64,000 nt of DNA, taken from positions 16,310 through 80,309 of the forward strand of contig JAEZSC010000004.1 in the NCBI GenBank assembly GCA_023422005.1, given 5' to 3'. Each line of letters begins with the position of its first letter. Position 1 is the first letter of the stretch. The position numbers were made by a program, and so were the translations under genes. The stretch is from Bacillota bacterium (lineage in GTDB: Bacteria; Bacillota; Clostridia; Christensenellales; UMGS416). Of this stretch, positions 1,766-51,036 are shown piece after piece. The notes beneath the pieces were generated by a model. It saw only the letters and a program-made list of their open reading frames with translations. It had not been told where the DNA came from and searched no databases.

Positions 1766-3850
<2,085 letters not shown>

Positions 3851-18538: not shown

Positions 18539-18555
18539 TGGTTTTTCTCCTTTTG

Positions 18556-24276: not shown

Positions 24277-24511
24277 CAGATATGGGCTGGTGGTTTCTGC
24301 CAAGGAAGGGAACGCATGGAACGAAAGATAGAGTTTGCTATTTTCTTGGACGGGGAATGTCCGTTTTACCGCCGAACGCTCGGTCGCTTTGCTGCAAGCG
24401 AAAGGAGCAAGCGTCACGGTAAGGCGGATGGAGCTAGGTTAGGTGGCCGCGGATCAGCCCATGAGCTTATCAGGATATGGGTTTGAGTCTTCAGTAAAAT
24501 GGAGGACAATT

Positions 24512-27941: not shown

Positions 27942-28613
27942 ATGGTATTATCTGAAATGCACTTGCACACAAAAGAAGTCAGTCCATGTGGAAATGTATC
28001 GGCTCGGGAAATTCCAGCTTTATACAAAAGGTGCGGTTATGGAAATATTGTCGTTACTGACCACTTTACAGATAAATATTTGAAAAAGTTGTCCCGCAAC
28101 AGAACTGTAGCTTTGAATTTATGGCTTGAGGGCTATCAAGTTGTCGCCGAAATGGGGCAAAAAATCGGATTAAATGTATTTTTGGGAATTGAAATCACAC
28201 TTAATGAAAGCGAAAACGAATATTTGATATACGGAATAACGGAAAATTTCGTTAAGAATTGCGGAGATATATTTGATAGTAATATAGCTCAATTCTACAA
28301 GCTGATAAAATATGGCGGTTATCAAATGTATCAGGCACATCCTTTTAGAGGAAAATGTCAACTTCAAAATCCTGAGTATATAGATGGTATTGAAGTTTTC
28401 AATGGAAATAAGCGGCACGAATCGCACAATGACTATGCATTTAAAGCCGCCAAAGCTCATCAGTTGAAAATGTTGGCTGGCAGTGATTTCCATGAATATG
28501 AGGATTTGGGTTGCGGTGGTATATATCTGCCGCAAGTAGTAAAGACAAATGACGATCTTGTTAAATATTTATCTGAAAACGATCCTGAACTTTGGCGATC
28601 TACCAATACATGA
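27942..28613 (+). CDS. PHP-domain metal-dependent phosphoesterase
   Basis: N-terminal SEMHLHTKEVSPCG and internal HPF, SDFH motifs fit the PHP/histidinol-phosphatase-like fold. AT-rich. 4-nt gap from the upstream gene. Confidence 0.65.
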   Translation: MVLSEMHLHTKEVSPCGNVSAREIPALYKRCGYGNIVVTDHFTDKYLKKLSRNRTVALNLWLEGYQVVAEMGQKIGLNVFLGIEITLNESENEYLIYGITENFVKNCGDIFDSNIAQFYKLIKYGGYQMYQAHPFRGKCQLQNPEYIDGIEVFNGNKRHESHNDYAFKAAKAHQLKMLAGSDFHEYEDLGCGGIYLPQVVKTNDDLVKYLSENDPELWRSTNT

Positions 28614-34214: not shown

Positions 34215-34368
34215 CTCACGCAGGCTATACAATTGCCTATATGAGCTACTTCAATTTATAAAGAATGCCCAAATAGTTAGAAATCTGAATGGACAACATC
34301 ACTTAACAAAGATATATTCTGCTCATCCGAAGCGATGCAGGTAACGCAAATGCCATCAGGAGGAAGGT

Positions 34369-35340
34369 ATGAGCATACAGACAATCCAGCAGACCAATAA
34401 GCAACCGCAGAGAAAGAAACGCCATGGTTTCTTAATCGAACTGGTGAAGAACCGCTATCTGTATTTGCTGGCATTGCCGGGTTTGCTTTTCTTTTTGATC
34501 TTTAATTATCTGCCAATGGTCGGCCTCTATATTGCCTTCATCGATTACAATCCCATAGCCGGCCTTTTTGGGTTTGCCAGCAAGTTTGTTGGGCTGTTCA
34601 ACTTCAAGTTCTTCTTCACTTCCAATGACTGGCTGTTCGTAACATTCAATACGCTGTTCCTCAACGCGCTGTTCATATCCACCGGACTGGTTGTGCAGAT
34701 ATTCATGGCCGTGGGGCTCAACGAGCTTGCCAGCCGGCCCTTCAAGCGCACGGCTCAGACGCTGATGTACCTGCCGAATTTTCTCTCGTGGACTGTTGTA
34801 TCCGTGTTTTCCATTGCGCTATTTTCTTCGGACAGTGGGCTTTTCAACAACATTCTGAGAACCTTTGGCCTTCCTACGATCGATTTTTATCAGAACGCCG
34901 CGGTATGGCCGCCGCTGTTGATTGCACTGCGGCTGTGGAAGGGTGCGGGCTTTGGTACCGTCATCTATCTTTCCACGATCTCCAGCATCAATCAGGAACT
35001 CTACGAGGCCGCAATCATCGACGGCGCATCCCGACTGCAGTGCATCACGCGCATCACGTTGCCGCTGTTGCGCTCGACGACGGTTATGCTGCTGATACTG
35101 TCTATCGGTGGCATATTTTACGGGGATTTCGGCATGATCTACGCCCTGGTGGGAGACAACCCACTGCTGCGCGGCACCACCGACGTTATCGATACCTTTG
35201 TCTACCGGGCATTGCGGCTGAACAACGATTACGGCATGTCCTCCGCGGTGGGCCTGTTCCAATCCGCTATCGGTTTTGTCATGGTCATTACCGCAAACGC
35301 GATTACGCGTAAACTCGATCAGGACTCGGCTCTCTTCTAG
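34369..35340 (+). CDS. CUT1-family sugar ABC transporter permease (LplB/YesP-like)
   Basis: 6 TM segments. EAA-loop region ELYEAAIIDGASRLQCITRITLPLL. Confidence 0.85.
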   Translation: MSIQTIQQTNKQPQRKKRHGFLIELVKNRYLYLLALPGLLFFLIFNYLPMVGLYIAFIDYNPIAGLFGFASKFVGLFNFKFFFTSNDWLFVTFNTLFLNALFISTGLVVQIFMAVGLNELASRPFKRTAQTLMYLPNFLSWTVVSVFSIALFSSDSGLFNNILRTFGLPTIDFYQNAAVWPPLLIALRLWKGAGFGTVIYLSTISSINQELYEAAIIDGASRLQCITRITLPLLRSTTVMLLILSIGGIFYGDFGMIYALVGDNPLLRGTTDVIDTFVYRALRLNNDYGMSSAVGLFQSAIGFVMVITANAITRKLDQDSALF

Positions 35341-35357
35341 AAGACGGAGGATGCAAT

Positions 35358-36251
35358 ATGAGATACAAAACCTTTGGTGATCGTATTCTAGTGGCAGTGT
35401 TCTACATTGTTACGGGCGGGTTTGCGCTGATCTGTCTGTTACCCTTGTGGGTGGCGCTCGTAGCGTCGTTTTCCAACGAGACCAAACTTGTGCATGACGG
35501 TTACAGCCTGTGGATCAACCAATTCGACCTGACTGCCTACCGGCTGATCTTCACAGGTACATCTTCCGTGTTGAACGCGTACGGCGTTACGATCCTCACG
35601 ACCGCTTGCGGTGCTGGGCTCACGGTGCTGTTGACGAGTTCGCTGGCTTATCCGCTGACGGTACCGGCTCTGCGTTACCGCAATGCGATGTCGCTGTTCG
35701 CCTACGCGACAATGCTGTTCAATGGCGGCTTGGTACCCACCTACATACTGACGACGCGTCTGTTGCATATGGGCAACACGCTGTGGGTGCTGATCGTGCC
35801 CGGTGCGCTCAACGCCTACAACATGTTCCTGATGAAGAATTATTTCTCGACAATACCCGACAGTATGTCGGAATCGGCCAAGATCGATGGCGCCAGCGAC
35901 ATCTATATCTTCTTTCGGATCATCCTTCCTCTGGCCAAGCCCATCATCGCAACGATCGCTCTGTTTTCCGCCATGGGCTACTGGAATGAGTGGTTCCGGG
36001 TGTTGCTCTATATTGATAATTCCAAGCTCTTTACGCTGCAGTACCTGATAATGCGCCTGCAGCAGCAGGTGGACTTCCTGACGTCGTCTTTGAATACGGC
36101 GGCCCGCAACTCCATGGGCAACCTGGCGGTGCCAACGATCAGCATCCGCCTGTCCACCGCGATGGTATCCATAGGGCCGATTATATTGCTCTACCCGTTC
36201 CTGCAGCGCTATTTTATCAAGGGAATCATGGTGGGCGCCGTAAAAGGATGA
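35358..36251 (+). CDS. CUT1-family sugar ABC transporter permease (LplC/YesQ-like)
   Basis: 6 TM segments. EAA-loop SESAKIDGASDIYIFFRIILPLAKP. Confidence 0.85.
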   Translation: MRYKTFGDRILVAVFYIVTGGFALICLLPLWVALVASFSNETKLVHDGYSLWINQFDLTAYRLIFTGTSSVLNAYGVTILTTACGAGLTVLLTSSLAYPLTVPALRYRNAMSLFAYATMLFNGGLVPTYILTTRLLHMGNTLWVLIVPGALNAYNMFLMKNYFSTIPDSMSESAKIDGASDIYIFFRIILPLAKPIIATIALFSAMGYWNEWFRVLLYIDNSKLFTLQYLIMRLQQQVDFLTSSLNTAARNSMGNLAVPTISIRLSTAMVSIGPIILLYPFLQRYFIKGIMVGAVKG

Positions 36252-36301
36252 GCCCGACGGCAAACACCACAGATAACGCACATAAAAAAGGAGGAAGAAG
36301 A

Positions 36302-38026
36302 ATGTCCCGAAAAGCGCTAAAACCATTGGCGATTCTGGTTGCACTTTCCATGTTGCTGGCCTCGCTGGCCGCGTGCACCCCGTCTCCTGCTGCGACAACC
36401 GCTCCGGCAAGCGCCGCGCCCGCACAATCCGAAGCGCCAGCCGCCAGCACTACTGTTGAAGAGACCGCAAGCGCGGCGCCGTCAGCCCCGCAGCCGCCTG
36501 AGCATGTCACACTGGAGTTCATTGCGCCCTCACCGGTGACTGCCGTCAACGGCTTTGACGCTGTCCTGGCTGAGTTCGCAAAGCAGACGGCTTCCACGAT
36601 CAACGCAGACATCCATTACACTTTCACCGGTTTTGACGACATCGGCCAGAAGGTCTCGCTGAAGCTGTCCGCCGGCGAGGCATTGGATTGCGCGTTCACC
36701 GCCCAGTGGACCAACCCATCGGTAATGCAGATGGTTTCCAAGGGCATGCTGGTAAATCTGGACAAGTACTTCACCGATCCGACGAATTATCCTGGGCTCA
36801 ATAAGGCTTTCACGCAGGACTTCCTACGAAACAACAGCTTCGCCGACGCCAACAACGAATACCACGTTTATGCCGTCCCCTTCGGCCACAGCTTCATCGG
36901 CGGCAGCGCCATCTATTACCGCAAGGACCTGGCTGATAAATACGGCATCTCCACAATCGCTTCCAATGATGACCTCTACAAGTACTTCGATGCAATACTG
37001 GCCAACGAAAAGGGCATGACGCCCTTCACGTTCCTGGGTTCCAACGACTTGTTGTCCGACTGGCTGAAGCCGCTGGTAATCCCGCCGGTTACGGGCAAAC
37101 ACAATACCGTTGGCATCAACGGCATCAACGTCGCCATTAGGGATGACGGCACCGTCTATGCCGCCAAGACATTTATCCCTGCGCTGGACCCTGAATACAA
37201 GGCGCTGATGAACCCCATCGAGGCGGCGATCGACCCGCTGGCATCCGTCAAGATGGCCCGCGAGTGGTATGTAAAGGGCTACATTGAGAAGGACAACCTG
37301 AACCAAAAGGATCATGAGGGCCAATTTATGGCCGGCAAGGCAGCCTCTTACATGCGAGGTGTGGATACCTTCTCTGCCATCAAGACCCGCCTGGGAACCT
37401 CGATACCCGGCGCCAAGCTCGGATACTGGGTTATCCAACCTGGCATCCGCTATGGTATGGACAAGATTGAGGGCAGCGACTTCAAGGTATGGAACTTCGC
37501 CAGCCTGCCCGTCAACTCCAAGTACAACGACCGGGTGATGGCAATCTTCGACTGGATCTTTGCTGACCAGGCCCACCATGACCTGTTCGAACTGGGCATC
37601 GAGGGCACGCATTGGGTGGCCGACGGTCCCGACAAGTACAAACTGCCCGACGGCACCGACCCGGCTCAGGCGTACAACTTCCCCGGTTACATCCTGACCT
37701 GGGCGCCCACGATGCAGCGGTTTGACTCACAGATGCCCGATGAGATCGTGGCAATCATGAAGAAGCTGGGCGACACCAACTACTACTACAAGCTGCCGAC
37801 CGCAGGGTTCTCCTTCATAACCGACCCGGTTAAGACCGAGGTGGCCAAGCTCAACGACCTAACTGCCCTGTCACGCGCGCTAGCTAACGGCGTCATTGCC
37901 GACATCGACGGCGAGGTCACCAAGATCCAGAAGCAATATGACCAAGCCGGTTATCAGACGCTGCGCGACGAGGTCATCAAACAATTCGGCGAATTCCTGA
38001 AGACCAATCCCTATCAGGGTCAGTAA
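36302..38026 (+). CDS. Extracellular solute-binding lipoprotein (large LplA-type sugar-binding protein)
   Basis: ATG 36302 with GGAGGAAG RBS. Lipobox LLASLAAC followed by an Ala/Pro/Ser-rich linker. ~570 aa, typical of LplA-like SBPs. Confidence 0.8.
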   Translation: MSRKALKPLAILVALSMLLASLAACTPSPAATTAPASAAPAQSEAPAASTTVEETASAAPSAPQPPEHVTLEFIAPSPVTAVNGFDAVLAEFAKQTASTINADIHYTFTGFDDIGQKVSLKLSAGEALDCAFTAQWTNPSVMQMVSKGMLVNLDKYFTDPTNYPGLNKAFTQDFLRNNSFADANNEYHVYAVPFGHSFIGGSAIYYRKDLADKYGISTIASNDDLYKYFDAILANEKGMTPFTFLGSNDLLSDWLKPLVIPPVTGKHNTVGINGINVAIRDDGTVYAAKTFIPALDPEYKALMNPIEAAIDPLASVKMAREWYVKGYIEKDNLNQKDHEGQFMAGKAASYMRGVDTFSAIKTRLGTSIPGAKLGYWVIQPGIRYGMDKIEGSDFKVWNFASLPVNSKYNDRVMAIFDWIFADQAHHDLFELGIEGTHWVADGPDKYKLPDGTDPAQAYNFPGYILTWAPTMQRFDSQMPDEIVAIMKKLGDTNYYYKLPTAGFSFITDPVKTEVAKLNDLTALSRALANGVIADIDGEVTKIQKQYDQAGYQTLRDEVIKQFGEFLKTNPYQGQ

Positions 38027-38060
38027 CCGCTTAACCGTTCATGACAATAGAAACGCACCA

Positions 38061-38094
38061 GGGAATGGAAACAGCCTGCGCTGTTTCCATTCCC
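38061..38094 (+). promoter_or_regulatory. Intercistronic perfect stem-loop after the SBP gene
   Basis: GGGAATGGAAACAGC / GCTGTTTCCATTCCC (15 bp), 4-nt loop, no T-tract. The next RBS starts 4 nt later. Confidence 0.5.
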
Positions 38095-38111
38095 ATAAAA
38101 GGAGGCTTCCG

Positions 38112-39080
38112 GTGCTCTTTGAACAGGTCACACCTACGCTCGCCCGTGCCCAACTGGAAGAATTGCGCGCTCGCGGTATGCCAACTGGCGGTGTCATTGT
38201 GCCCATTGCGGGCATCGATTGCCCGATGGTCACCAATCCATCAATTCCCTTCCTAAGTGATGGCATCGAGGTTCTGGCCGTCCGGGCGGATGCCGGCGGC
38301 CCGCAGCCATCCTCGCACACCGTGTTTTGCCAATGGCAGGTCGACGCCTGGCGGCCCATCCCCGGCGCGCAGACGCTTGCGTTGGAAGACCCCTTTGTCA
38401 CCTGCGTTGCTGGCCAGCTAGTGCTGGGCGGCGTGCGCGTTATCGTGGAAAACGGCTCCGTAACCTCATGGGTTACCGATTTCTATATGGGTCAAAGCAT
38501 CCATTCGCTGCGGCATCTGTTCACAGGGCCATGGCATATGAAGGACATCCGTCTTGTAGAATTGAGCGACGGCCGCATCGGCGTGTTCTCCCGCCCTCAG
38601 GGCCAGAAAATGCTGGACCGGTACGGCTGCATCGCCCAGATCGGCTTTACCGTGTTCGGCAGTCTGCAGGACATCACCGCCGAGGGCATCGAGGCGGCGC
38701 CTTACTTACAGGGCCTTTTCCTGCCTGGCGAGTGGGGCGGGGCCAATCAGGTTTATCTGCTGGACAACGGCCTGCTGGGCGTCGTCGGCCATAAGGCCTG
38801 GGGAGAGCACATCGGGGGAGAACATATGCTGCACTACTACAGCATGGCCTTCGCGTTGGACCCGGTCAGCCACCGGTTCACCGAACCTCGAGTCATCTGC
38901 GCCCGGGAGTGTTTTGCCGACGGGCCGGCGTCGCAACCCCGGGTGCGGGACGTTACCTTCACCGCCGGCATTGTCCGCCGGGGGGGACGGGCAGAGCTCT
39001 ACACCGGCTTGAGTGACTGCCAGATCGGGCGCATCGAGATCGATGACCCGCTGTGCATGTATGAGGAGCTTCGACTGTGA
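38112..39080 (+). CDS. DUF1861-like beta-propeller protein (GH-like fold)
   Basis: GTG start with AAAGGAGG RBS. Motifs DPFVT, GPWHMKDIRLVEL, GVFSRPQG, EWGGANQVYLL, GVVGHKAW, HYYSMAF and LYTGLSD are recalled as DUF1861 hallmarks. Confidence 0.6.
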   Translation: MLFEQVTPTLARAQLEELRARGMPTGGVIVPIAGIDCPMVTNPSIPFLSDGIEVLAVRADAGGPQPSSHTVFCQWQVDAWRPIPGAQTLALEDPFVTCVAGQLVLGGVRVIVENGSVTSWVTDFYMGQSIHSLRHLFTGPWHMKDIRLVELSDGRIGVFSRPQGQKMLDRYGCIAQIGFTVFGSLQDITAEGIEAAPYLQGLFLPGEWGGANQVYLLDNGLLGVVGHKAWGEHIGGEHMLHYYSMAFALDPVSHRFTEPRVICARECFADGPASQPRVRDVTFTAGIVRRGGRAELYTGLSDCQIGRIEIDDPLCMYEELRL

Positions 39081-40105
39081 ATCGCAGGGAACGAATTTTG
39101 GCTGCCATTGCCCATGAACCAGTGGATAAGGTTCCTGTGGGCTTTGATATCTGCAGCGAGGAACTGATGCAGAAGACTCTCACCCATTATGGCATCGGGA
39201 ACATTGGGGAGCTCTATGCCAAGACGGGTATCGAGGCCTTCTCTGTGTGGCAATGGCCGGCTGTCACTCCGACCTATGTCGGTCCGGAACGGCCCGGGTC
39301 GCAGGCCCGTGACGCTACCTATGGCGCCTGGGGCAAAGTTGGTGAAGTTGTCTATCCGCTGGCCGGGCGGAACCTGAATGATTACCACTGGCCCCGGGTG
39401 GAGGATTTCGACTTTTCCTCACTGAAAGAGGAGCTCTCTCTTGTTCGCCAGATGGATATGACCGCCGCCAGCGGCCACGCTGGGGCGGGTTGGCTGCACC
39501 ATGTTCAGATGCGCGGTTATGACCATGCGTTGTTCGATGTGTTGGACGACGCCTGGATGGAGGAGTACATGGGCCGCAACCGTGAATTCCTTCTGCGTTA
39601 CTTCCGGGCGTTGTTCCGGGAGGCCGGCGGCCTGATCGACATCATCCGCGCCGATGAGGATGTGGGTGGGCAACTTAACATGCTTATCAGCCCCGCCCTG
39701 TGGCGTCGCTGGTACAAGCCCCTGTGGGCGGAGCTCTTCTCCCTCTGCCATGAGAACGGTGCGCGGGTGTGGCTGCATTCCTGCGGGTTCTGCTGGGATA
39801 TCGTGCCGGATTTCATCGACATGGGTGCCGACGTGCTCAACCCGCTGCCGCCCTATGTGCGCTGTGGCGATCCGGCGGCCATGAAAGCGAATTTTGGTGA
39901 CCGGCTGGCCTTCGACGGCGGTGTGGATCAGATCAACGCCATCGCCCTGGGCACACCCGTGGACATCCGCCGGGAGGTGCGGCTGCGGCTGGAGCAGCTT
40001 TCGCCGGGCAGCGGATACATTCTGGGGCCGTCACAGGTGTTTTCCCGGGACGTCTCCTTTGAAAACCTGCTGGCTTTCTTCGACGCGGCCCAGGAGTATT
40101 GCTGA
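39077..40105 (+). CDS. Uroporphyrinogen decarboxylase (URO-D)/MtaA-like family protein
   Basis: GTGA overlap with the upstream stop. N-terminus RERILAAIAHEPVDKVPV. Internal WLHSCGFC (H-x-C). TIM-barrel-length protein. Confidence 0.7.
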   Translation: MNRRERILAAIAHEPVDKVPVGFDICSEELMQKTLTHYGIGNIGELYAKTGIEAFSVWQWPAVTPTYVGPERPGSQARDATYGAWGKVGEVVYPLAGRNLNDYHWPRVEDFDFSSLKEELSLVRQMDMTAASGHAGAGWLHHVQMRGYDHALFDVLDDAWMEEYMGRNREFLLRYFRALFREAGGLIDIIRADEDVGGQLNMLISPALWRRWYKPLWAELFSLCHENGARVWLHSCGFCWDIVPDFIDMGADVLNPLPPYVRCGDPAAMKANFGDRLAFDGGVDQINAIALGTPVDIRREVRLRLEQLSPGSGYILGPSQVFSRDVSFENLLAFFDAAQEYC

Positions 40106-40962
40106 TGGGAGAAGGGGAATTGCGCGGCATGATCGCCGATATCCAGCGGTTCAGCCTGCACGACGGGCCGGGCATCCGCACGACGGTATTTCTGAAGGGC
40201 TGCAACCTGCGCTGCGCCTGGTGCCACAACCCGGAGACCATTTCCTTCCAACCCCAGGTGCTGCTGCGCCCGGAAAAGTGCATCGGCTGCGGCGGGTGTG
40301 AGGATGGCTGCTTCTCCGGTGCCCGGGTGCTTTGCGGCGTGGAACGCACGGTGGACGATGTGCTGCGGGATGTGCTTCTGGATGCACCTTTCTACGGCAC
40401 CGACGGCGGTGTCACCGTGTCCGGTGGAGAGCCGCTTTGCCAGATGCAGTTCACCGCCGCGCTGCTGGCCGCCTGCCGGGCGGCGGGGGTGCGCACGGCG
40501 GTGGAGAGCAACATGACCCTGCCGTGGGAAGTGGCCTGGAGCGTGTTGCAATATTGCGATCTGCTGATGGCGGACCTGAAACTTTGGGACCTAGAGGAGC
40601 ACCGGCGCTGGACAGGCCAGAGCAACAGGGAGATCAAGGCAAACCTGCTGCGGGCAGCGGACGCCGGGCTGCCGGTGCTGCTACGCACGCCGGTGATCCC
40701 CGGCGTGAATGACCGGGAAGAGGAAATACGCGCCATCGCGCGCTTTGCCAAGGGATTGAATACCTTGGTTTGTTATGAGCTGCTGCCATACCATCCCCTG
40801 GGGTTATCCAAGGGACAGTTGGAAGGATGGCAGGCCACAGAGTTTGCAAAACCGTCCGCGGACCGGATGATGGACTTGGCCCAGGCGGCCATGGAGGAAG
40901 GCGTGGAGGTCCGATTGGCCAACACGTCGGTGACACAGAAACGGGAGGGAGAACATGAGTGA
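40105..40962 (+). CDS. Glycyl-radical enzyme activating enzyme (radical SAM)
   Basis: IQRFSLHDGPGIRTTVFLKGCNLRCAWCHNPE (CX3CX2C), an extra CIGCGGCEDGC ferredoxin-like motif, and GGVTVSGGEP. TGATG overlap with the upstream stop. Confidence 0.85.
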   Translation: MGEGELRGMIADIQRFSLHDGPGIRTTVFLKGCNLRCAWCHNPETISFQPQVLLRPEKCIGCGGCEDGCFSGARVLCGVERTVDDVLRDVLLDAPFYGTDGGVTVSGGEPLCQMQFTAALLAACRAAGVRTAVESNMTLPWEVAWSVLQYCDLLMADLKLWDLEEHRRWTGQSNREIKANLLRAADAGLPVLLRTPVIPGVNDREEEIRAIARFAKGLNTLVCYELLPYHPLGLSKGQLEGWQATEFAKPSADRMMDLAQAAMEEGVEVRLANTSVTQKREGEHE

Positions 40963-43096
40963 GCTGACCTATCGGCAGCGAGTGCGCCTGCTACGGGAGA
41001 AGAAGATACAACACACGCTGGAAAAGACCCGGCGTAACGGCTATATGGATGGAGACGACTATGGCACTGTGCCGCTGCCGGAGGAGTTTCACTACGAGGC
41101 CGCGCCCAATCACCCCAACGGCGGGTTTTATGGCCTGGATGGATGGTCCCGCAACTACGCGGCGTTGATGGCGGTGCATCCGGTGTATGTGGACCCGCTG
41201 GAGATACTCTGCGGCCGCTGGGCGGCCATGCTGCCGTTGTGGCGTAAGGGCTGGCCGGAGGACCTGTTCCCCTACGACGAGTTAAAGGCCGAGCAGCAGC
41301 TCTACGGCATCAACAGCGGCATCGGCGCCGACGCTCACTTTGCCTGTGATTACAGCATCGGCCTGGATCTGGGCTTTGGTGGCATTCTGGAGAAGGTTCG
41401 CCGCTTCAGGGCGACGCATGAGGAGGATAAGCAGGCGTTTTACGACGCTGAGGAGACAGTGATACTTGCCATACAAGGCTGGATCCAACGCCATATTGCC
41501 CGCATCGAGGAACTGCTGGACGGGGAGACCCGTCCCGAGATTGCCGCGACGCTGCGGCGTATGCTGGAATGCAACCGCAATATCGTCAGCCAGCCACCGC
41601 AGACCTTCCTGGAGGCCTGCCAGTGGATCGCTTTCTTTGCCTGTGCCTCTCGCATCTACGACCGCGACGGTGCCGGATGCATGTTGGATACGGTGCTGCT
41701 GCCCTTTTATTTGCGGGACAAGGCAGCGGGGCGTCTGGATGACGAGGAAGCCACGTTCATACTGGCCAACCTGCTGCTCATTGAGACTCATTATTATCAG
41801 CTCTCTGGCGTGACAACCGAAGGCAGCGACCGCACCAATCCGGTATCCTGGCTGATACTGGAGGGCGCCCATTGGCTCAATACCTCCAACAACCTGACTG
41901 TCCGCGTGCACGACGGCATCGACCCGGCCTTCTACCGCAAGGCTGTGGAGTACCTGTTTACCGACCGCAATGGTTGGCCTCGTTTTTCCGGCAACAAGGG
42001 CCTGGTGGGCTATGCCCGCAACGCCGGGGCTGATATGGATACGGCGTTGGAACGTATCGCCGTGGGTTGCAACTGGATGGCGGTACCCGGCCGGGAATAC
42101 CCGATGAATGACTGTGTGAAGATCAATGTGGCCAAAGTATTTGAGGTAGCACTGCACCAGATGATGGACGAGGGGCAGCCCTCCACCGAACGGCTCTTCG
42201 AACTGTTGGAGCACCACCTGCGCCGGGCTGTGGAGGTCACCGCCGCCGGCATCAACCTGCACATAGACCACCAACATAATGTCATGCCGGAATTGGTGAT
42301 GAACCTGTTCATGCGCCACACCATCGAGGACGGGCTGGACATCACCCAATGCGCAGAACTGTTCACCGTGGGCATCGATGGCGTTGGGTTGGGTACCGTG
42401 GCCGATTCCTTCGCCGCGCTGGAGCAACGGGTGATGCAGGAGGGGCGCGTCACCTGGCAGCAGGTGTATCAGGCGTTGCAGGAGGATTTCCGCGACAACG
42501 AGCGGCTGCGGCTGATGCTCAAGGCCTCGGAACGCTATTGTCAAGGAGCATCGTTAGGGGATAAGTGGGCCAAGCGCGTCAGCGACCTGTTGACACGGCT
42601 GGTCAAATCGCAGCCCATGCCCCAGGGCCGCACGCTTGTGCCCGGCTGGTTCTCCTGGTCCAGCACCATAGCCTTCGGCCGCCAGGTGGGCGCCACGCCC
42701 GATGGCCGCCATGCCTTTACGCCGGTAACCCACGGCGCTAACCCTAACCCCGGCTTCCGCAAGGATGGCGCCGCCACGGCCATGGCCTTGGGCATCGCCC
42801 AGATCCAGCCGGGTTACGGCAACCCGGCGCCGCTGCAACTGGAGTTCGACCCCCATCTATCCAAGGAAGAGGGGGGCATCGATCGCGTGGCTCAGCTCAT
42901 CCGCACCCATGTGGACCTGGGCGGTACGCTGGTCAACATCAACGTGCTGGACCGGGACAAGCTGATGGCTGCCCACAGGGACCCTATGGCCCATCCGGAC
43001 CTGGTGGTTCGGGTGACAGGCTTTACCGCCTACTTTGCCACGCTATCGCCGGAGTTCCGCCAGCTGGTCGTAGATCGGTTTGTAGAGGGGCTGTAG
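40955..43096 (+). CDS. Pyruvate formate-lyase-like glycyl radical enzyme of unknown specificity (713 aa)
   Basis: FGRQVGATPDGR motif. C-terminal glycine loop VVRVTGFTAYF (Gly689 by position). Candidate thiyl Cys372 in AVGCNWMAVPG. Overlaps the activase gene end. Confidence 0.85.
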   Translation: MSELTYRQRVRLLREKKIQHTLEKTRRNGYMDGDDYGTVPLPEEFHYEAAPNHPNGGFYGLDGWSRNYAALMAVHPVYVDPLEILCGRWAAMLPLWRKGWPEDLFPYDELKAEQQLYGINSGIGADAHFACDYSIGLDLGFGGILEKVRRFRATHEEDKQAFYDAEETVILAIQGWIQRHIARIEELLDGETRPEIAATLRRMLECNRNIVSQPPQTFLEACQWIAFFACASRIYDRDGAGCMLDTVLLPFYLRDKAAGRLDDEEATFILANLLLIETHYYQLSGVTTEGSDRTNPVSWLILEGAHWLNTSNNLTVRVHDGIDPAFYRKAVEYLFTDRNGWPRFSGNKGLVGYARNAGADMDTALERIAVGCNWMAVPGREYPMNDCVKINVAKVFEVALHQMMDEGQPSTERLFELLEHHLRRAVEVTAAGINLHIDHQHNVMPELVMNLFMRHTIEDGLDITQCAELFTVGIDGVGLGTVADSFAALEQRVMQEGRVTWQQVYQALQEDFRDNERLRLMLKASERYCQGASLGDKWAKRVSDLLTRLVKSQPMPQGRTLVPGWFSWSSTIAFGRQVGATPDGRHAFTPVTHGANPNPGFRKDGAATAMALGIAQIQPGYGNPAPLQLEFDPHLSKEEGGIDRVAQLIRTHVDLGGTLVNINVLDRDKLMAAHRDPMAHPDLVVRVTGFTAYFATLSPEFRQLVVDRFVEGL

Positions 43097-43111
43097 CCTA
43101 ACAGGTCAACA

Positions 43112-43149
43112 AGCCAGGCTCAACGCTAAGCAAAGAGCCTGGCTTTTTG
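43112..43149. terminator. Bidirectional terminator between convergent operons
   Basis: AGCCAGGCTC / GAGCCTGGCT stem followed by TTTTT. Confidence 0.6.
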
Positions 43150-43281
43150 ATTGAATGCCCTCGTTAACAACATCCCTTGCGTTTGATGAGTAAGGCTGAG
43201 ACTGTTTACACGCAAAGGAAGGTAGAATATACCTCCAGGCCCGGGCAAGTTGCCCAGGCCGGGAGGTTTCGGCATGTTGTG

Positions 43282-44373
43282 TCAGTACCGTCCCTGTGTC
43301 AGGCAGGTTTCGATGATGCGCAGATAGTTGCGCGCGGCGTTGGGCGGGAGCTCTTCGACGATGGGCGAGGCGGATATTGCCAGAATGATGGGCCCTTTCC
43401 TGCTCTCCTCGATGATGTCCAGCGTCTTCTGGGCGATCTCATCCTCGGTGTAGCCATGGAACAGATCGCTGTACTCGATGTTGCCAACGAATATCGTGTC
43501 CGGTCCGAGGCCTTCCCGCGCCTGGGCCAAGGTTACGTCTCCCATCGGCGGTGGCTCCAGCGGATGGATGGAGTCCATGCCAATCTCCTTGAATTCCTTG
43601 AGTACGGACCCCACGCATCCGTGGCTGTGGATCATGCTCTTCTTGCCGTAGCTTCTGACCAAATCCACAAGCTGCTTGTAGTATTCCGTGGCGTAGTAGG
43701 AGAAGAACTGCGGACCCAGCGTGGGCGGCAGGATGTATTCGCAGCCGTCAATCCAATAAATATCGCCCAGGCCGCGCTCCAGGAACAGCTTGTAATACGC
43801 CAGGCACCGCCGCTGCAGCTCGTCCATGCATGCCTTCATGCGCTCCCGCTCGGTGTAGTTGACGATGGCATACTCCGTTTCGTCAAATACGCTGTGGGTA
43901 AAGGTCAGCGGTCCGGGCTCCATGATGCAGGGGATGCCCCGGTCGCCCAGCGCTGCCACATCGGCGTCGTAGGAGGAGGTGTCGGGCACGTCCAGCTGGA
44001 ACGGAAACTCCAATATCGTTTCCAGGTCCTCGATGCTCTTGCACAGAGGCACGACGACCTTGCGCCCGTTCTCCATGACCGTGTCGGATTGGAAGGTCTT
44101 GTCCTTGTAGGTGACGCTGCGGCGCGCGCCTTCCCGGCGTTCCACAACGGAGGGATGGGCGTTCAGGAAGAGGCGGCTCGGGTAATTCAGCCTGTCGATG
44201 ATATCCGTCTGCGAATAAATCACTTGATTGACCTGGGCGTAGGACGGGCTTTCAAACACGTTGGCCGCCAGATTCCACGGCTTGCCCGGGAACAGCATCC
44301 AGACGGGAATCCTGTCGATCTCCTGGCGGTTGAAGATGCGCGTCAACCGCTCCTTCCCAGTTAGGCTTTTCAT
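43282..44373 (-). CDS. URO-D/MtaA-like family protein (second paralog)
   Basis: ATG 44373 in an ATGA overlap with the SBP stop. KERLTRIFNRQEIDRIPVW N-terminus. HSHGC (H-x-C) motif. Confidence 0.7.
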   Translation of the reverse strand: MKSLTGKERLTRIFNRQEIDRIPVWMLFPGKPWNLAANVFESPSYAQVNQVIYSQTDIIDRLNYPSRLFLNAHPSVVERREGARRSVTYKDKTFQSDTVMENGRKVVVPLCKSIEDLETILEFPFQLDVPDTSSYDADVAALGDRGIPCIMEPGPLTFTHSVFDETEYAIVNYTERERMKACMDELQRRCLAYYKLFLERGLGDIYWIDGCEYILPPTLGPQFFSYYATEYYKQLVDLVRSYGKKSMIHSHGCVGSVLKEFKEIGMDSIHPLEPPPMGDVTLAQAREGLGPDTIFVGNIEYSDLFHGYTEDEIAQKTLDIIEESRKGPIILAISASPIVEELPPNAARNYLRIIETCLTQGRY

Positions 44374-45959
44374 TTTGTTCCCTTGTACCATTCGTTGTAG
44401 GCTTCCACGATCTTGTCCGCGCCCTTGGACTTCATCTCCGTGACGAACTGATCGAATTCGTCCAGGCTGCGGGCGCCGGCGATGAACTTTGTGGCTTCCT
44501 GCGCGGCGTACTCGGTGACAACCTTGATGTCCTGAGACACGCTGTCAAACGCGGGGGCGGCGGCCAGCGGATTGACCACCAGGAAGTCGCCGGCTTTTTC
44601 GAAGGTTTTGGCAAACAGATATCCGCCCTCGGCAGTCTTGCGGGTGCGCATCTTCCACAGCGGGAAGTAGAACGGGCCATCCTGCAGGGGGGAGAGGTGA
44701 TACAGATTGCCGCGGTTCTGGTCGAATGCCGGAATCAACGGCGTGGGCTCACCATCCACCATCTTGAAGTCCACGCCCTCGTCGCCGTGGATGATGTATT
44801 CATAGTTTTTGTCGTCGCGGAAGGCGTCCAGGAATTTCAGCGTGGTCTCCAGCTTCGTGGAGCTCTTGGGAACCATGCCGATGCGGAACAGACCGCTCAA
44901 CGACCGGGAGCGCTGCACGCCCTTGTCGTCCTTGAAGGGAGCGATGATGTCCATGGGCGCGGCGATGTCCTTGTTCTTCTCCTTGGCCGCGACCCACAGG
45001 AAGCGGGGTTGGTCCGTGCCGCCGCTGAAAGCGCCAACGCGGCCGGCTGCGACCTTTTCGCTGATCGTGGTGCCCGTGTTCACTGGCATGTCCTGATCCA
45101 TAAGCTTCTCACTGTACAGCTTGTTCATGAACGTCAGGTAAGCCTTGTATTCCTGCGTGAGGCGCATGTCGGCGAGCTTTCCTTCGACGTCCTGATAGTC
45201 GTAAAGGATACCGAAGGTCGTGGCCACTGTGGAAACCATGGTGCCGGGGCCGGCGATGAAGGGAATGAAGTCCGCGCCGATGCCGCCGGGATCCTTCTGC
45301 TGGAATTGGACCAGCATGTTGTAGAACTCATCCCGCGTTGTCGGAACGGACAGGCCCAGCTTTTCCAGCCAATCCATACGGACGGAGATGGTATCGGACG
45401 AATAGGGCATGCCGGTGCTGCCGATGGCGAAGATGCGTCCGTTCACGCGAACGGCATCCGCTCCCAGGGGGTCCAGCTTGCTCAGGTTGGGGTATTTGGG
45501 CAGTTCATCGGTCAAATCCAGGAGCAGGTTCTTCTTCGCGTATGTCGCGTATACGCTCTTGTCGTTGTCGCTGGCGCCGATGTTGATCAGGTCATAGGGG
45601 ATGTCGCCGCTGGAGAAGATCAGGTTCAGCTTGTCCAGCGCGTTCTGTTCGGGCAGCATGTCATAATCGATGTCATAATGGGTGACCTCTTCCAGCACCA
45701 CGACGGAATGATCGGTCTTTGCGTCGAAGGGCGCGTATCCGACCAGGATGTGGATCGGGTCGCCTTCGTTGATCAGCTTCCCGTCGTCTTGTGCGGGAGC
45801 CGAGGCAGACGGCGCTGCCGAAGCTTCAGCGGGCGTCGCGCTGGCGGCGGTTGAGGATTGCTCCGCTGAAGTGGCGGGAGCATTGTTGGGGGCGCAAGCT
45901 GCCAACAGCAGGCAGCATGCCAGCACGATGGGGATGATGCGAGGGAACGGTTTCGACAT
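44370..45959 (-). CDS. Extracellular solute-binding lipoprotein (second sugar ABC system)
   Basis: Lipobox LLLAAC, Ala/Ser/Pro linker, ~500-aa LplA-type SBP. Confidence 0.8.
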   Translation of the reverse strand: MSKPFPRIIPIVLACCLLLAACAPNNAPATSAEQSSTAASATPAEASAAPSASAPAQDDGKLINEGDPIHILVGYAPFDAKTDHSVVVLEEVTHYDIDYDMLPEQNALDKLNLIFSSGDIPYDLINIGASDNDKSVYATYAKKNLLLDLTDELPKYPNLSKLDPLGADAVRVNGRIFAIGSTGMPYSSDTISVRMDWLEKLGLSVPTTRDEFYNMLVQFQQKDPGGIGADFIPFIAGPGTMVSTVATTFGILYDYQDVEGKLADMRLTQEYKAYLTFMNKLYSEKLMDQDMPVNTGTTISEKVAAGRVGAFSGGTDQPRFLWVAAKEKNKDIAAPMDIIAPFKDDKGVQRSRSLSGLFRIGMVPKSSTKLETTLKFLDAFRDDKNYEYIIHGDEGVDFKMVDGEPTPLIPAFDQNRGNLYHLSPLQDGPFYFPLWKMRTRKTAEGGYLFAKTFEKAGDFLVVNPLAAAPAFDSVSQDIKVVTEYAAQEATKFIAGARSLDEFDQFVTEMKSKGADKIVEAYNEWYKGTK

Positions 45960-45971
45960 GGTTTCTCCTCC

Positions 45972-46853
45972 TTATTCTTTTACGGAGCCTATCATGACTC
46001 CTTTGACAAAGTATTTTTGCACGAAGGGGTAGACCAGAAGCACTGGGATGGTCGCGGCGATGATCGTGGCCGCCCTGGTGGCCTGCGGCGCGTCGGTGAG
46101 CGCCATAAGGCCCTCGGCGGAGTTGATGTTGGACGTGTCCATGGCGAAGTTCACGATATCCAACAGATAGAGCTGAATGGGCTTCAAGTCGTTTTTCGTG
46201 ATATACAGCATGGCGCTCCAGTATTCATTCCAGAAGCCCACCGCAAAGAACAGCGACACCGCCGCAATGGTCGGCATAACGACAGGCAGCATGATCCGCC
46301 AGAACACGGTGAAATTGGATGCGCCGTCGATCTTCGCGCTCTCCTCCAGCGAGGGTGATACGCTCTCAAAGGCGCTCTTCATGATCAGCATGTTGTACAC
46401 GCTGATGGCGTTGGGCAAAATGACCGCCCATAGCTTGTTGAGCAGGCCCAATTCCCTGACGACGATGTAGGTTGGCACCATGCCGCCGGAGAACATCATC
46501 GTGAATACAAAGGCGACGGTGAAAAAGGACCTGCCATGCAGCCGCGCGCGGGATAGCGCATAGGCGGCCATGCCCGACAGCAGCAGGGAGAGCGCCGTGC
46601 CGCCCACTGCGATGCGAAGGGATACCCATAGCGCTTTCCAGAACTGCTGTTTGAGCACAACGTTCTTCATCGTCTGCACCTGGAAGCCTTCGGGAATCAT
46701 GAATATCCTACCGGTGATGTTCGCCTCATAGCTGCTGAACGCTTTTGCCAGGATGTTGATAAAGGGATACAACGTGCTCAGTGCAAACAGCCCCAGCGCG
46801 ATGTACACGATGACTGCAATCACTTTTTCTTCCCGTGTCTTGGAAATCCTCAT
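45972..46853 (-). CDS. CUT1-family sugar ABC transporter permease
   Basis: ATG 46853 with AGGAGGGG RBS. EAA loop EESAKIDGASNFTVFWRIMLP. Confidence 0.85.
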   Translation of the reverse strand: MRISKTREEKVIAVIVYIALGLFALSTLYPFINILAKAFSSYEANITGRIFMIPEGFQVQTMKNVVLKQQFWKALWVSLRIAVGGTALSLLLSGMAAYALSRARLHGRSFFTVAFVFTMMFSGGMVPTYIVVRELGLLNKLWAVILPNAISVYNMLIMKSAFESVSPSLEESAKIDGASNFTVFWRIMLPVVMPTIAAVSLFFAVGFWNEYWSAMLYITKNDLKPIQLYLLDIVNFAMDTSNINSAEGLMALTDAPQATRAATIIAATIPVLLVYPFVQKYFVKGVMIGSVKE

Positions 46854-46864
46854 AGCCACCCCTC

Positions 46865-47839
46865 CTACCACAGGCTGCGCGATACGAGCTTTCGGCTCGC
46901 GGCATTCGCGGCGACAACCAGTGTGAATGATATGACCGAATTGAAAAGGCCGGCGGCCGAGGCATAGCTGTATTCCATGTTGCTCAAACCTGTCCTGTAG
47001 ATATAGGTGCCGATGACGTCGCCGGTGGCATAGACCGTGGGGTTGTACATCGCCATGATCTGCTCCACGTTGGCATCCATGACGGTTCCCACGCGCAGCA
47101 GCAGCGTGATCACGATGATCGGCAGAATGCCCGGAATCGTCACATGGATGATCTGTTTGATGCGGCTGGCCCCGTCCACAACGGCAGCCTCATAGAGCGT
47201 GGGGTCTATGGCTGTGATGCCGGCCAGAAAGACGATGGCGCTGTACCCCGCTTCCTTCCACACAGCGCTGCCCACGACCAGGGAGCGGAAGAGGGACGGC
47301 TCCATCATGAAGCGCCGCTTTTCCCCGCCCAGCATCGATAGGACCTGGTTGATGCCCCCGGTGTTGGAGAACATATCGAACACGAGGCCCGCGACGATGA
47401 CCCAGGACAGGAAGTGCGGCAGATAGATGATCGTCTGTAACGTCCGCTTATACCCCGAGTGGGTGATCTCATTGAGCATGATGGCCACCACAATGGGAAT
47501 CGGGAAGAAGAACAGGATCTTGTACCAGCTGATCAGCAGCGTATTGCGCAGCACCACGGGGAATTCCATCGAGGAAAACAGCTTGGCGAAGTTCTCCAGG
47601 CCTACCCATGGGCTGCCGCCGTATCCCTCAAAAATGTCATACTGCTGAAACGCCATCGTAAGCCCGACCATGGGCAGGTATTTGAAGACCAATAAAAACC
47701 CAAGCGGAAATAGGAGCATCAAATAAAGATCCCAGTCGTTCACCATATCCTGCAGCAGCTTGCGTTTTGGATTTACCACCATCGCGCTATGGCCCTGCAG
47801 CAGCCCGCGCTTCTGTTTTGTCACAATTGGGCTAGGCAC
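46865..47839 (-). CDS. CUT1-family sugar ABC transporter permease
   Basis: GTG start with GGAGGGA RBS. EAA loop LYEAAVVDGASRIKQIIHVTIP. Confidence 0.85.
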   Translation of the reverse strand: MPSPIVTKQKRGLLQGHSAMVVNPKRKLLQDMVNDWDLYLMLLFPLGFLLVFKYLPMVGLTMAFQQYDIFEGYGGSPWVGLENFAKLFSSMEFPVVLRNTLLISWYKILFFFPIPIVVAIMLNEITHSGYKRTLQTIIYLPHFLSWVIVAGLVFDMFSNTGGINQVLSMLGGEKRRFMMEPSLFRSLVVGSAVWKEAGYSAIVFLAGITAIDPTLYEAAVVDGASRIKQIIHVTIPGILPIIVITLLLRVGTVMDANVEQIMAMYNPTVYATGDVIGTYIYRTGLSNMEYSYASAAGLFNSVISFTLVVAANAASRKLVSRSLW

Positions 47840-48053: not shown

Positions 48054-49391
48054 ATGAAGAAGGTATTGGAGCCCGGCAGAGAGTTGACGGTCGCGCTGGA
48101 GACGGACATCTGTGTTGTGGGCGGCAGCTGCACGGGGCTGTTCGCTGCGGTGCGGGCGGCCCGCTTGGGCGCGCGCGTCGCCATTGTGGAAAAGCAGAAT
48201 TGCTTTGGCGGCACGGCGACGGCGGGGCTAGTCAACGTGTGGCACAGCTTGCATGATGTGGACGGCAAACAGCAGATCATCGCGGGATTGACCGATGAAA
48301 TAATCCAAAGGCTGCAGCGCAGACGCGCGGTCATGTATAACAACAACGTCAACATTGCCTACCGGCTGGACACCGAGGAGCTCAAAATCGAGCTGGACGC
48401 GCTGGCCGTGGAGAGCAAGCTGGACGTTTTTTTCCACACGATGTATTGCGCGCCCTACCGCGAGGACGGGCAGCTCAAAGGAATCATCATCGAGAACAAG
48501 GATGGCCGGCAGGTCATACTGGCGAAATTCGTCATCGACGCGTCGGGCGACGGGGACGTGGCCCGCGATATGGGCCTCAAGAGCTACCGCCACGAGCATC
48601 TGCAGCCACCCTCGCCGGGGTTCAAGCTGTTGGGAGACATCAGCAAGTTCAGAATCGACGCCATACTGCAGGAATATGGCGCAAGGTTCGGGCTTCCTGA
48701 GGATTGGGGATGGGGCGGCCCGATCCCCGGCGCGCCGCTGCTCTCCTTCCGGGCGGACACCCATGTCTTCAACGTGGACTGCTCCGTTGCCTCTGACCTG
48801 ACCGCCGCGGAGATCGAGGGCCGCCTGCAGATCCGCGCCGTCATCGATGCGATCAATACCTGCGCGCCTGTAGCGGCGGATGTGCGAATCGCAGCGATCG
48901 GCTCCACGATAGGCATCCGGGATTCCCGGCATTTTGAGAGTGATTATCAGATGAACGCGGAGGATCTTCTGCACGGTACGTCCTTCCCGGACGCCATCGC
49001 CTATGGTACTTACCGCGTGGACATTCACCACGGCAACGGCGCGGGCATCACCTTTAGGACTCTGGACGGGCATGAAGATATCTTCAACGACAGGACAAGC
49101 CCGGCGATCCACCGCCTCTGGCGGACCGGCGACGACTACGCCCGCTATTATCAGGTCCCCTTTCGCTCGCTGGTGCAGCGCCAGGTGCCCAATCTGATCA
49201 TGGCCGGGCGCATGATCCATTCCGATCGCGACGCCTTCGGCGCGATCCGCGTTATGGTCAATCTCAACCAGCTGGGCGAGGCTGCCGGCGTGGCGGCGTA
49301 CCAGGCCGTCGATACCGGGCTGCCCGTCTGGGAGACGGACACCGCCAGGCTTCGCGCCGCGATGAAGGCCGGAGGGTCTGTTATTTTGTAG
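48054..49391 (+). CDS. FAD-dependent oxidoreductase
   Basis: Dinucleotide-binding N-terminus DICVVGGSCTGLFAAVRAARLGARVAIVEK...GGTATAG. 445 aa. Confidence 0.7.
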   Translation: MKKVLEPGRELTVALETDICVVGGSCTGLFAAVRAARLGARVAIVEKQNCFGGTATAGLVNVWHSLHDVDGKQQIIAGLTDEIIQRLQRRRAVMYNNNVNIAYRLDTEELKIELDALAVESKLDVFFHTMYCAPYREDGQLKGIIIENKDGRQVILAKFVIDASGDGDVARDMGLKSYRHEHLQPPSPGFKLLGDISKFRIDAILQEYGARFGLPEDWGWGGPIPGAPLLSFRADTHVFNVDCSVASDLTAAEIEGRLQIRAVIDAINTCAPVAADVRIAAIGSTIGIRDSRHFESDYQMNAEDLLHGTSFPDAIAYGTYRVDIHHGNGAGITFRTLDGHEDIFNDRTSPAIHRLWRTGDDYARYYQVPFRSLVQRQVPNLIMAGRMIHSDRDAFGAIRVMVNLNQLGEAAGVAAYQAVDTGLPVWETDTARLRAAMKAGGSVIL

Positions 49392-51021: not shown

Positions 51022-51036
51022 CGGGGGTAAAAGTTG

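Follow-up and report, generated by a model that had tools for sequence, protein, structure and literature searches.

What reaction might a glycyl radical enzyme (GRE) catalyze when its gene lies among genes for the import and cleavage of oligosaccharides? The question is raised by a 64,000-nucleotide stretch of DNA from a Bacillota bacterium (Christensenellales, UMGS416; assembly GCA_023422005.1, contig JAEZSC010000004.1, positions 16,310 to 80,309), called the window below, in which a 713-amino-acid GRE and its activating enzyme are encoded behind an ABC importer, a DUF1861 protein, and a URO-D-like protein. GREs perform reactions that are otherwise closed to anaerobes, and earlier assignments of GRE clades exposed hidden pathways of the gut and the environment, such as those for choline, hydroxyproline, isethionate, and anhydro-sugars. 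A first-pass annotation of this DNA had suggested radical chemistry on an imported glycoside or modified sugar. Our results support that suggestion: neither of the two outcomes that the annotation had named as refuting, a known clade for the GRE or an unconserved sugar context, was obtained. The enzyme belongs to a distinct subfamily with a different catalytic loop. In our leading reading, for which we put the chances slightly short of even, the operon serves to catabolize an imported oligosaccharide, probably a beta-mannoside, under anaerobic conditions, and the GRE carries out radical C–O cleavage of a hexose-level intermediate.

The genes of the operon are the following.

34369–35340, + strand, CUT1-type ABC permease 1 (BPD_transp_1, E 9e-16)
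35358–36251, + strand, CUT1-type ABC permease 2 (BPD_transp_1, E 3e-9)
36302–38026 (alternative start 36248), + strand, lipoprotein solute-binding protein with a C-terminal DUF3502 domain and an L-A-A-C lipobox
38112–39080, + strand, DUF1861 beta-propeller (Pfam DUF1861, E 2e-81)
39077–40105, + strand, URO-D/MtaA-fold TIM barrel, copy 1 (Pfam URO-D, E 1e-15, 57.8 bits)
40105–40962, + strand, GRE-activating radical-SAM (S-adenosylmethionine) enzyme (TIGR02494, 278 bits against a cut-off of 174)
40955–43096, + strand, GRE of 713 amino acids with PFL-like and Gly_radical domains and residues C372, W374, and G689

The last gene encodes a complete GRE, with an activase of its own, in the PFL-like branch of the GRE superfamily. 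Both PF02901 (E 7e-83) and PF01228 (E 5e-14) match the protein, and the glycine motif VVRVTG689FTAYF lies near its C-terminus. The Cys loop reads A-V-G-C-N-W, with a single cysteine, C372, that aligns with the catalytic Cys of PflD. Among 50 homologues, V684, R686, V687, T688, G689, and F690 to F694 are invariant and V685 nearly so; C372 and W374 are likewise invariant, and RVTGFTAYF and AVGCNW are kept family-wide. W565 and W568, which are situated on a strand that lines the pocket in other GREs, do not vary among these homologues either. The activase starts at ATG 40105, not at TTG 40099, and its top matches are the activases of GRE eliminases. Eliminase-type activases usually carry two CX2CX2CX3C motifs. 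The window activase combines the radical-SAM CX3CX2C motif, CNLRCAWC, with one complete auxiliary motif, CIGCGGCEDGC, and may bind a single auxiliary cluster.

The claim that this GRE lies outside the characterized clades was borne out at the level of sequence, family models, and catalytic loop. Its identity to all solved GREs is 18–25%; the closest by sequence is Escherichia coli PflD (E 1e-51, 23% identity), and a dozen other eliminases score almost equally. An AlphaFold2 model (mean predicted local distance difference test score, pLDDT, 92.4) superimposes on PflD, propanediol dehydratase (PD), glycerol dehydratase (GD), and CutC with template-modeling (TM) scores of 0.82–0.84 at 18–23% identity, and at least 10 solved GREs fall in that TM range. 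The best family model, TIGR01774 for the PFL2/glycerol-dehydratase subfamily, gave 261 bits against a cut-off of 678, followed by HpsG (210 against 1000), PRK09983 (197 against 1109), HypD (169 against 1100), CutC (130 against 1050), and TIGR01255 (53 against 994). With all scores under the cut-offs, the GRE sits in no curated family. Having a single Cys, it lacks the two-Cys signature of the formate-lyases PFL and TdcE, and it has C372-N-W374 at the place of the C-X-E of eliminases and isomerases. This C-X-E is retained by all six C–O eliminases, CutC, three C–S lyases, and three isomerases, and its Glu contacts the substrate (PMC13450708).

Homologues with the same features are numerous. A word-indexed search returned more than 120 clusters of 705–741 amino acids at 58–77% identity, plus one fragment of 592 amino acids; named sources include Anaerocolumna xylanovorans, Hungatella hathewayi, Faecalibacterium sp., and Candidatus Gallacutalibacter. 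When one genome per species was counted, at least 480 species-level genomes were found to be carriers; Clostridia predominate, alongside some Kiritimatiellia, Victivallales, and Lentisphaeria. When representatives at 50% identity were searched exhaustively, the signature G-C-x-W ... P-G-x-E-Y marked a clade that comprises at least 27 representative clusters, with identities as low as about 26%. GRE representatives outside the clade mostly read G-C-(V/I)-E, with a few other variants. The clade lacks an insertion of about 25 residues that precedes the "xxGG" strand, and position 630, a Lys in PflD and the eliminases, is acidic in most members. Taken together, these features set the G-C-x-W GREs apart as a distinct subfamily. 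Our searches of the GRE literature, including papers of 2025–2026, yielded no description of this clade, and none is given in a GRE review of June 2026 (PMC13450708). Similarly, no report of a mannoside locus with a GRE or a URO-D-like protein was found in the literature; the one GH130 paper that mentions GREs does so only in citing a network method.

Two members of the subfamily deserve separate mention. The representative-library protein P0230, from outside the window, is a natural fusion of an activase with a G-C-x-W GRE, 1052 amino acids in length; it was considered as a functional clue and set aside as merely an activase–GRE fusion. In a syntenic locus of another organism, L088, the GRE (11920–14085) is 75% identical to the window enzyme as far as residue 662 and divergent beyond. 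The divergence has the look of a frameshift, due to either assembly error or gene decay, with loss of the glycyl radical motif.

The first-pass annotation had also expected the association with sugar genes to be conserved, and this agrees with the neighborhoods of 80 loci from genomes and 80 from metagenomes, which represent the clade and its sister clades. They were the top 80 among 480 matches in genomes and the top 80 among 560 in metagenomes. Open reading frames (ORFs) came from a crude caller, were clustered by single linkage, which merges distant paralogues, and were labeled by Pfam and BLAST. An activase adjoins the GRE in 68 of the 80 genome loci. The commonest partner is a Gfo/Idh/MocA oxidoreductase, present within 5 kb of the GRE in 43 of 80, usually as 1–4 copies immediately upstream of the activase and the GRE. 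Two of its representatives are strongly DgpA-like (E 2.5e-89 and 4e-53, with the next families at about 1e-23 to 1e-31). In gut C-glycoside metabolism, DgpA serves as the glycoside 3-oxidoreductase. Other frequent neighbors are xylose-isomerase-like TIM barrels, AraC regulators, and CUT1 or CUT2 importers, and sugar-type neighbors were recognized in 60 of the 73 genome loci of at least 8 kb. The GREs nearest that of the window (73–75% identity) occur in the order DgpA-like gene, TIM barrel, activase, GRE, with a convergent CUT1 importer, and the minimal conserved module consists of one DgpA-like oxidoreductase, the activase, and the GRE. The TIM barrels beside these closest relatives were examined as possible equivalents of DgpBC and rejected, as they match neither the DgpB nor the DgpC chain.

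Other branches place the GRE among genes for mannoside cleavage. The A. xylanovorans locus reads LacI, DUF1861, two permeases, DUF3502 binding protein, PF12831 flavoprotein, DUF1861, activase, GRE, GDSL esterase; further genome loci add GH130 genes and F5/8 type C domain proteins, and L088 has the gene order of the window plus a GH130 gene. In L089, from a 4.9-Mb genome, the GRE is 45% identical and still reads C-H-W, and the order is permeases, binding protein, GRE, activase, URO-D, and two esterases. A DUF1861 and URO-D pair was seen in L009. Among the 80 metagenome loci of sister clades, DgpA-like genes were found in 17 and URO-D-like genes in 5–8, together with DUF1861, GH130, and PF12831 genes and PfkB and FGGY kinases. 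A GH38 alpha-mannosidase gene adjoins the GRE–activase pair or a URO-D-like gene in metagenome loci L158, L165, L141, L153, and L125, the order in L158 being URO-D, GH38, activase, GRE. A flavoprotein and an aldolase of the dihydrodipicolinate synthase (DHDPS) type accompany the GRE in H. hathewayi and in L058, which also has a BNR_2 protein; elsewhere the GRE is followed by an Fe–S aldo-keto reductase (AKR). The Gallacutalibacter locus contains a mannose-6-phosphate isomerase gene. Collectively, the sugar and mannoside neighborhoods of the clade are conserved.

Within the window operon, the DUF1861 protein matches PF08950 with 273.7 bits over positions 15–294 of 296, and it matches the mannosyltransferase/phosphorylases (MPTs) of Leishmania (6q4w, E 3e-46; 6q50, 1.5e-45; 2b4w, 1.4e-42). 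It is probably a beta-mannoside phosphorylase of the Leishmania MPT/GH130-like kind. DUF1861 homologues occur in 6–7 of the 80 related GRE loci, plus L088 and L092. Compared to GH130 mannoside loci and the Leishmania MPT system, GRE loci share CUT1 importers, LacI, DUF1861 or GH130 phosphorylase-like genes, esterases, and GH38, but the window locus differs in having neither a phosphomannomutase nor a mannose-6-phosphate isomerase.

The URO-D-like protein (copy 1) is a genuine recurring partner of the GRE. Its homologues (61–77% identity) adjoin GRE–activase pairs in two gene orders, in L088 and L089, and the link spans GREs of 45–75% identity and continues at the family level in sister clades. 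PF01208 is matched with 57.8 bits against 23.9. An AlphaFold2 model (pLDDT 95.9) is nearest to MtaA (4ay7, the best, TM 0.68) and to UroD (2inf, TM 0.67), so that by predicted fold the protein would be closest to these two and close to neither; a sequence search yielded no solved relative. It falls outside the MtaA and HemE functional families, with scores of 29 against 244 for PRK06252, 28 against 235 for TIGR01463, and 21 against 400 for MtaA, and overall values of 28–64 bits against cut-offs of 235–400. At the position of the MtaA/MetE zinc site it has the motif H-S-C-G (HSCG), with H234 invariant and C236 at least 90% conserved; the third zinc ligand, a distal Cys, is not identifiable, C239 being kept in close relatives only, and copy 2 has H-S-H. 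The pairing of DUF1861 and URO-D-like proteins with the GRE, which the first-pass annotation had emphasized, is real in its links, but these are confined to sub-branches, and the family-wide partner is the DgpA-like Gfo/Idh/MocA oxidoreductase.

The operon itself is compact. In the URO-D-like gene and its neighbors, direct reading of the sequence confirmed the overlaps that had been described: GTGA at 39077–39080 between DUF1861 and URO-D copy 1, TGATG at 40103–40107 between URO-D copy 1 and the activase, and 8 nt, ATGAGTGA, at 40955–40962 between the activase and the GRE. URO-D copy 1 is translationally coupled on both sides. The whole locus recurs in two independent assemblies, where the GRE is identical and the genes stand in the same order, and full synteny at 72–77% amino-acid identity is found in L088; because of both, the locus is regarded as real and more than a chance arrangement. 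The first binding protein probably starts at M19 (36302), and public assemblies call it as 574 amino acids; it is 72% identical to its L088 counterpart and 43–47% identical to those of the A. xylanovorans and Limiplasma GRE loci.

In the pathway that we propose, the lipoprotein binding protein and the two permeases would import the sugar, and the DUF1861 enzyme would split it. The activase would place a radical on G689, which would generate a thiyl radical on C372, and the GRE would act directly on a hexose-level intermediate, together with the URO-D-fold protein. On a neutral pyranose or anhydro-pyranose, the C372 thiyl would abstract hydrogen from one of the carbinol carbons; the adjacent C–O bond would then break, by dehydration or by opening of the ring ether (beta-elimination), and the product would be a deoxy-keto sugar for ordinary reductases, kinases, and aldolases. 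Trp374, which replaces the Glu of the Cys loop, may stack on the sugar ring, and the role of the base may have shifted to the acidic residue at position 630 (E630). Established here are the gene identities, the intact pair of GRE and activase, the subfamily, the translational coupling, the position behind a CUT1 importer, and the recurrence of the partner families; what we infer is the class of substrate, the type of bond that breaks, and what W374, E630, and the URO-D-like protein do. C–O cleavage is suggested because the nearest relatives in sequence, structure, and activase are C–O cleaving eliminases and isomerases (PflD, PD, GD). A deoxy-keto product is suggested because an Fe–S AKR, PfkB and FGGY kinases of the ketose or keto-deoxy type, and a DHDPS-type class I aldolase adjoin the GRE in various loci. 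The pocket would suit a sugar because it is Trp-rich (W374, W565, W568) and position 630 is mostly acidic, and the mannoside theme follows from the recurrence of the DUF1861–MPT match, GH130, GH38, and a mannose-6-phosphate isomerase gene.

Several observations weigh against this proposal. The Glu used by every known GRE that cleaves C–O, C–N, or C–S bonds is missing from the Cys loop, and the chemistry could therefore be of a different type. The sets of partners vary by branch (DgpA-like with TIM barrel, DUF1861 with URO-D, FAD oxidoreductase with DHDPS, or AKR alone), and no single pathway covers all of them. The DgpA-like partner speaks for chemistry on 3-keto-sugars, and we could not link this to mannoside phosphorolysis. 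The roles suggested for E630 and the Trp residues come from alignment, the substrate and the reaction are deduced from gene context, and the neighborhood counts derive from crude ORF calls and BLAST labels for the best 80 of 480 and 80 of 560 matches.

Of the other ways to read the locus, the nearest is in fact a sub-case of C–O cleavage on a sugar. PflD and YbiW, known since 2024, are GRE isomerases of 1,5-anhydromannitol-6-phosphate and 1,5-anhydroglucitol-6-phosphate in "anhydroglycolysis" (PDB 8yjo, 8id0, 8id7), and the window GRE might similarly open the ring of a 1,5-anhydro-hexitol, or of the 3-keto derivative that a DgpA-like or FAD oxidoreductase would make from it, to give a 1-deoxy-ketose. 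The likeness includes the GRE fold, the single catalytic Cys, an eliminase-type activase, and action on a sugar ring; PflD is the top match both by sequence (E 1e-51) and by structure (TM 0.82), its substrate is manno-configured (PMC13450708) in agreement with the mannose theme, the minimal module supplies a DgpA-like oxidoreductase, and PfkB or FGGY kinases adjoin some of the GREs. Prior oxidation at C-3 would make the neighboring hydroxyl acidic and could explain the loss of the Glu base. However, the C-X-E kept by PflD, YbiW, and HplG is C-N-W here instead of C-V-E, the window enzyme is some 50–100 residues shorter, the roughly 25-residue insertion before "xxGG" is absent, Glu630 stands where PflD has Lys, and the identity of 18–23% is no better than that to diol dehydratases. 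The neighbors are ABC import and a phosphorylase, not a phosphotransferase system (PTS) and an aldolase; PTS and fructose-6-phosphate-aldolase genes were not found near the window GRE, and no known natural beta-mannoside would yield an anhydro-hexitol. We consider this variant unlikely. Another rival starts from the DgpA-like genes: the enzyme would replace DgpBC and break an anomeric-carbon bond of a 3-keto-glycoside that resists acid/base lyases, such as an unactivated C-glycoside. In most related loci the GRE does follow directly on 1–4 DgpA-like genes, often with xylose-isomerase-like TIM barrels and an AraC regulator, the TIM barrels in these operons match neither DgpB nor DgpC, and the GREs that lack the Cys-loop Glu include the succinate synthases, which form C–C bonds. 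Yet the DgpA–DgpBC pathways work without a radical enzyme, DgpA-like genes are absent from the window, and the mannosidase and phosphorylase neighbors speak for ordinary O-glycans. No GRE is known to break anomeric-carbon bonds of this kind, and we hold such cleavage to be improbable.

The remaining readings take the GRE away from the sugar. Its substrate could be a small co-product or aglycone (a polyol, an acid, or a methylated compound handled with the MtaA-like protein), with the sugar genes just supplying the compound. Most characterized GRE eliminases do use C2–C5 molecules (PMC13450708), esterases recur in the GRE loci, and the URO-D-like proteins share with MtaA/CmuA and uroporphyrinogen decarboxylase the URO-D TIM-barrel fold and have an H-x-C motif at the position of the MtaA/MetE zinc site. 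The window GRE also resembles the diol dehydratases and other 1,2-eliminases (GD, PD, CutC, HypD, IslA, HpsG) in fold (TM 0.82–0.84), in its TIGR02494-type activase, and in retaining H128 and D132 in the "GH..D" strand. On the other hand, these small-molecule eliminases keep the C-X-E (PMC13450708) that is lacking here, and the scores are far under their equivalog cut-offs; the locus has no microcompartment genes, and its context is sugar metabolism, as opposed to small molecules. The locus holds no corrinoid protein or B12-binding gene, the minimal modules contain only the sugar oxidoreductase, activase, and GRE, and the invariant Trp-rich strands suit a pyranose, so that an aglycone substrate seems quite unlikely. 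In connection with methylated compounds, the URO-D-like proteins were also considered as parts of a corrinoid O-demethylase; this was rejected, since no B12-binding domain or corrinoid partner is present among the annotated genes of the locus, L088, or L089 and the scores are far below the MtaA cut-offs. It might finally be argued that the adjacency is incidental and that GRE and activase form a mobile two-gene cassette, of unrelated function, that settles in sugar loci. The wide variation in partner genes, the insertion sequence (IS) elements near the window locus, and the 13 of 73 loci of at least 8 kb without a recognized sugar neighbor would fit such a cassette. We regard it as highly improbable because of the overlapping starts and stops that couple the genes to URO-D and DUF1861 and because of the recurrence of the same partner families, down to 42–45% GRE identity and in different gene orders, including the DgpA-like gene that usually lies directly upstream in 43 of 80 loci.

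A broader interpretation can be offered for the subfamily. The G-C-x-W proteins may be a new mechanistic class of GRE that performs radical chemistry on a hexopyranose ring without the Cys-loop Glu, be it ring-ether opening, deoxygenation, or anomeric cleavage of a keto-sugar. Together with partners that are DgpA-like, FAD-dependent, or of the URO-D fold, they would constitute a radical route in the catabolism of mannosides and glycans that has not been seen before and is widespread among anaerobes of gut and sediment. This interpretation is tentative, and we judge it rather less than evenly probable. Three features are new: the subfamily itself, which is populous and differs in its catalytic loop; its occurrence within gene sets for mannosides and 3-keto-sugars; and its association with orphan URO-D-like and DUF1861 proteins. 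A GRE in a sugar context is no longer without precedent: sugar-acting GREs are already known in PflD and YbiW, which act on anhydro-sugar phosphates, so that the idea is not categorically new. The clade, at no fewer than 480 species-level genomes, includes Hungatella, Faecalibacterium-related bacteria, Oscillospiraceae, Christensenellales, and Kiritimatiellia; no structure of a member has been solved, and the clade lacks a residue thought essential for C–O, C–N, and C–S cleavage by GREs. That it lies so regularly among sugar oxidoreductases and mannoside-cleaving enzymes suggests an unrecognized radical step in anaerobic glycan breakdown. Solving the clade would also explain what the orphan URO-D-like proteins of sugar loci and the DUF1861 proteins of bacteria do, and cultured carriers exist (A. 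xylanovorans DSM 12503 and H. hathewayi), making the question directly testable.

All genes, domains, and flanking regulators listed in the first-pass annotation were recovered at their places by ORF calls and Pfam. The features that surround the operon genes are the following.

30627–31652, − strand, LacI-family repressor, divergent from the operon (Pfam LacI, Peripla_BP_1, Peripla_BP_3)
31787–34147, + strand, AraC-type regulator of 786 amino acids with GGDEF_2 and HTH_18 (Pfam)
34290–34318, + strand, promoter-like site TGGACA-17-TATATT (consensus match 10/12, the best of the region)
43107–43146, + strand, hairpin and T-run 3′ of the GRE gene (AAGCCAGGCTC...GAGCCTGGCTTTTTG, read directly)
43233–43268, second hairpin
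43282–44373, − strand, URO-D-like protein, copy 2, last gene of the convergent operon (Pfam URO-D, E 2e-15)
44370–45959, − strand, second binding protein, SBP_bac_1 (Pfam), with an L-A-A-C lipobox
45972–46871 and 46865–47839, − strand, permeases of the second importer (Pfam)
48054–49391, + strand, PF12831 FAD-dependent oxidoreductase (E 8e-81)
49432–51021, + strand, YesN-like response regulator (Pfam)
51034–52809, + strand, YesM-like histidine kinase (Pfam)

The LacI gene has the equivalent position in L088 and in the A. xylanovorans locus. The AraC-type regulator has a syntenic homologue of 776 amino acids in L088, and a dCache-AraC protein occupies that position in L089. The promoter-like site lies immediately 5′ of the first permease gene and is a consensus match only; such sites are not enriched in the region relative to shuffled sequence. 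The hairpin at 43107–43146 is likely the terminator of the GRE operon; an automatic terminator scan missed it, its loop being longer than 8 nt. A YesN/YesM-like pair also stands at the head of the H. hathewayi GRE operon.

The "two-importer" description of the locus holds insofar as both importers are present, each with two BPD_transp_1 permeases and an extracellular lipoprotein binding protein as expected of the CUT1 type, but the second has no close counterpart elsewhere and is specific to the window. Its binding protein and the one encoded convergently beside the closest GRE relatives share only 22% identity. URO-D copy 2 overlaps the gene of this binding protein by ATGA (− strand, 44370–44373, read directly, as had been described), is 22% identical to copy 1, matches PRK06252 below the cut-off (1.4e-17), and has only distant relatives (23–27%) in other GRE loci; it is doubtful that it belongs to the GRE system. 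For want of close counterparts in other GRE loci, this copy and the second importer were not kept as parts of that system and are treated as neighbors of uncertain relevance. Among the Pfam-scanned ORFs at 30–53 kb, no importer-type ABC ATPase was found for either CUT1 importer. The CUT1 importers of Firmicutes commonly share one ATPase encoded elsewhere, and both window importers presumably do the same. The FAD oxidoreductase, which had been listed as a flanking gene, was not retained as a conserved partner: PF12831 proteins adjoin the GRE in about 10 other loci, but because their identity to the window copy is just 22–26%, the link was reduced to one of family and not of orthology.

Elsewhere in the window, DUF772/DDE transposase genes (407 and 481 amino acids) and an IS91-type Y2 transposase gene are found at 29185–30408, 7214–8659, and 4914–6080, all on the − strand. 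The copy at 29185–30408 lies immediately upstream of the LacI gene in a low-GC stretch (0.43–0.46) and could be the sign of a recent insertion or of the locus boundary. The segment 24443–28613 encodes a BD-FAE esterase (24443–25822), an AP_endonuc_2 TIM barrel (27101–27937), and a PHP_C protein (27942–28613). These three families recur in GRE loci, but the window copies have no close homologues there, and the esterase and the TIM barrel, being dissimilar to the GRE-linked copies, were rejected as GRE-linked genes. A separate glycan locus at 9309–15683 comprises an AraC regulator, a GH78 alpha-L-rhamnosidase (10598–13165), an MFS_2 transporter (13218–14636), and a GH5 protein (14661–15683). On the − strand, 16878–21210 holds a group of genes for Fe–S and P-loop proteins, namely a C_GCAxxG_C_C–Nitro_FeMo-Co fusion, a NUBPL/ParA-type ATPase, a metallo-beta-lactamase-fold protein, and two CbiA/Fer4 proteins. 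A Rho termination factor of 694 amino acids with a long N-terminal extension is encoded at 1766–3850 on the + strand.

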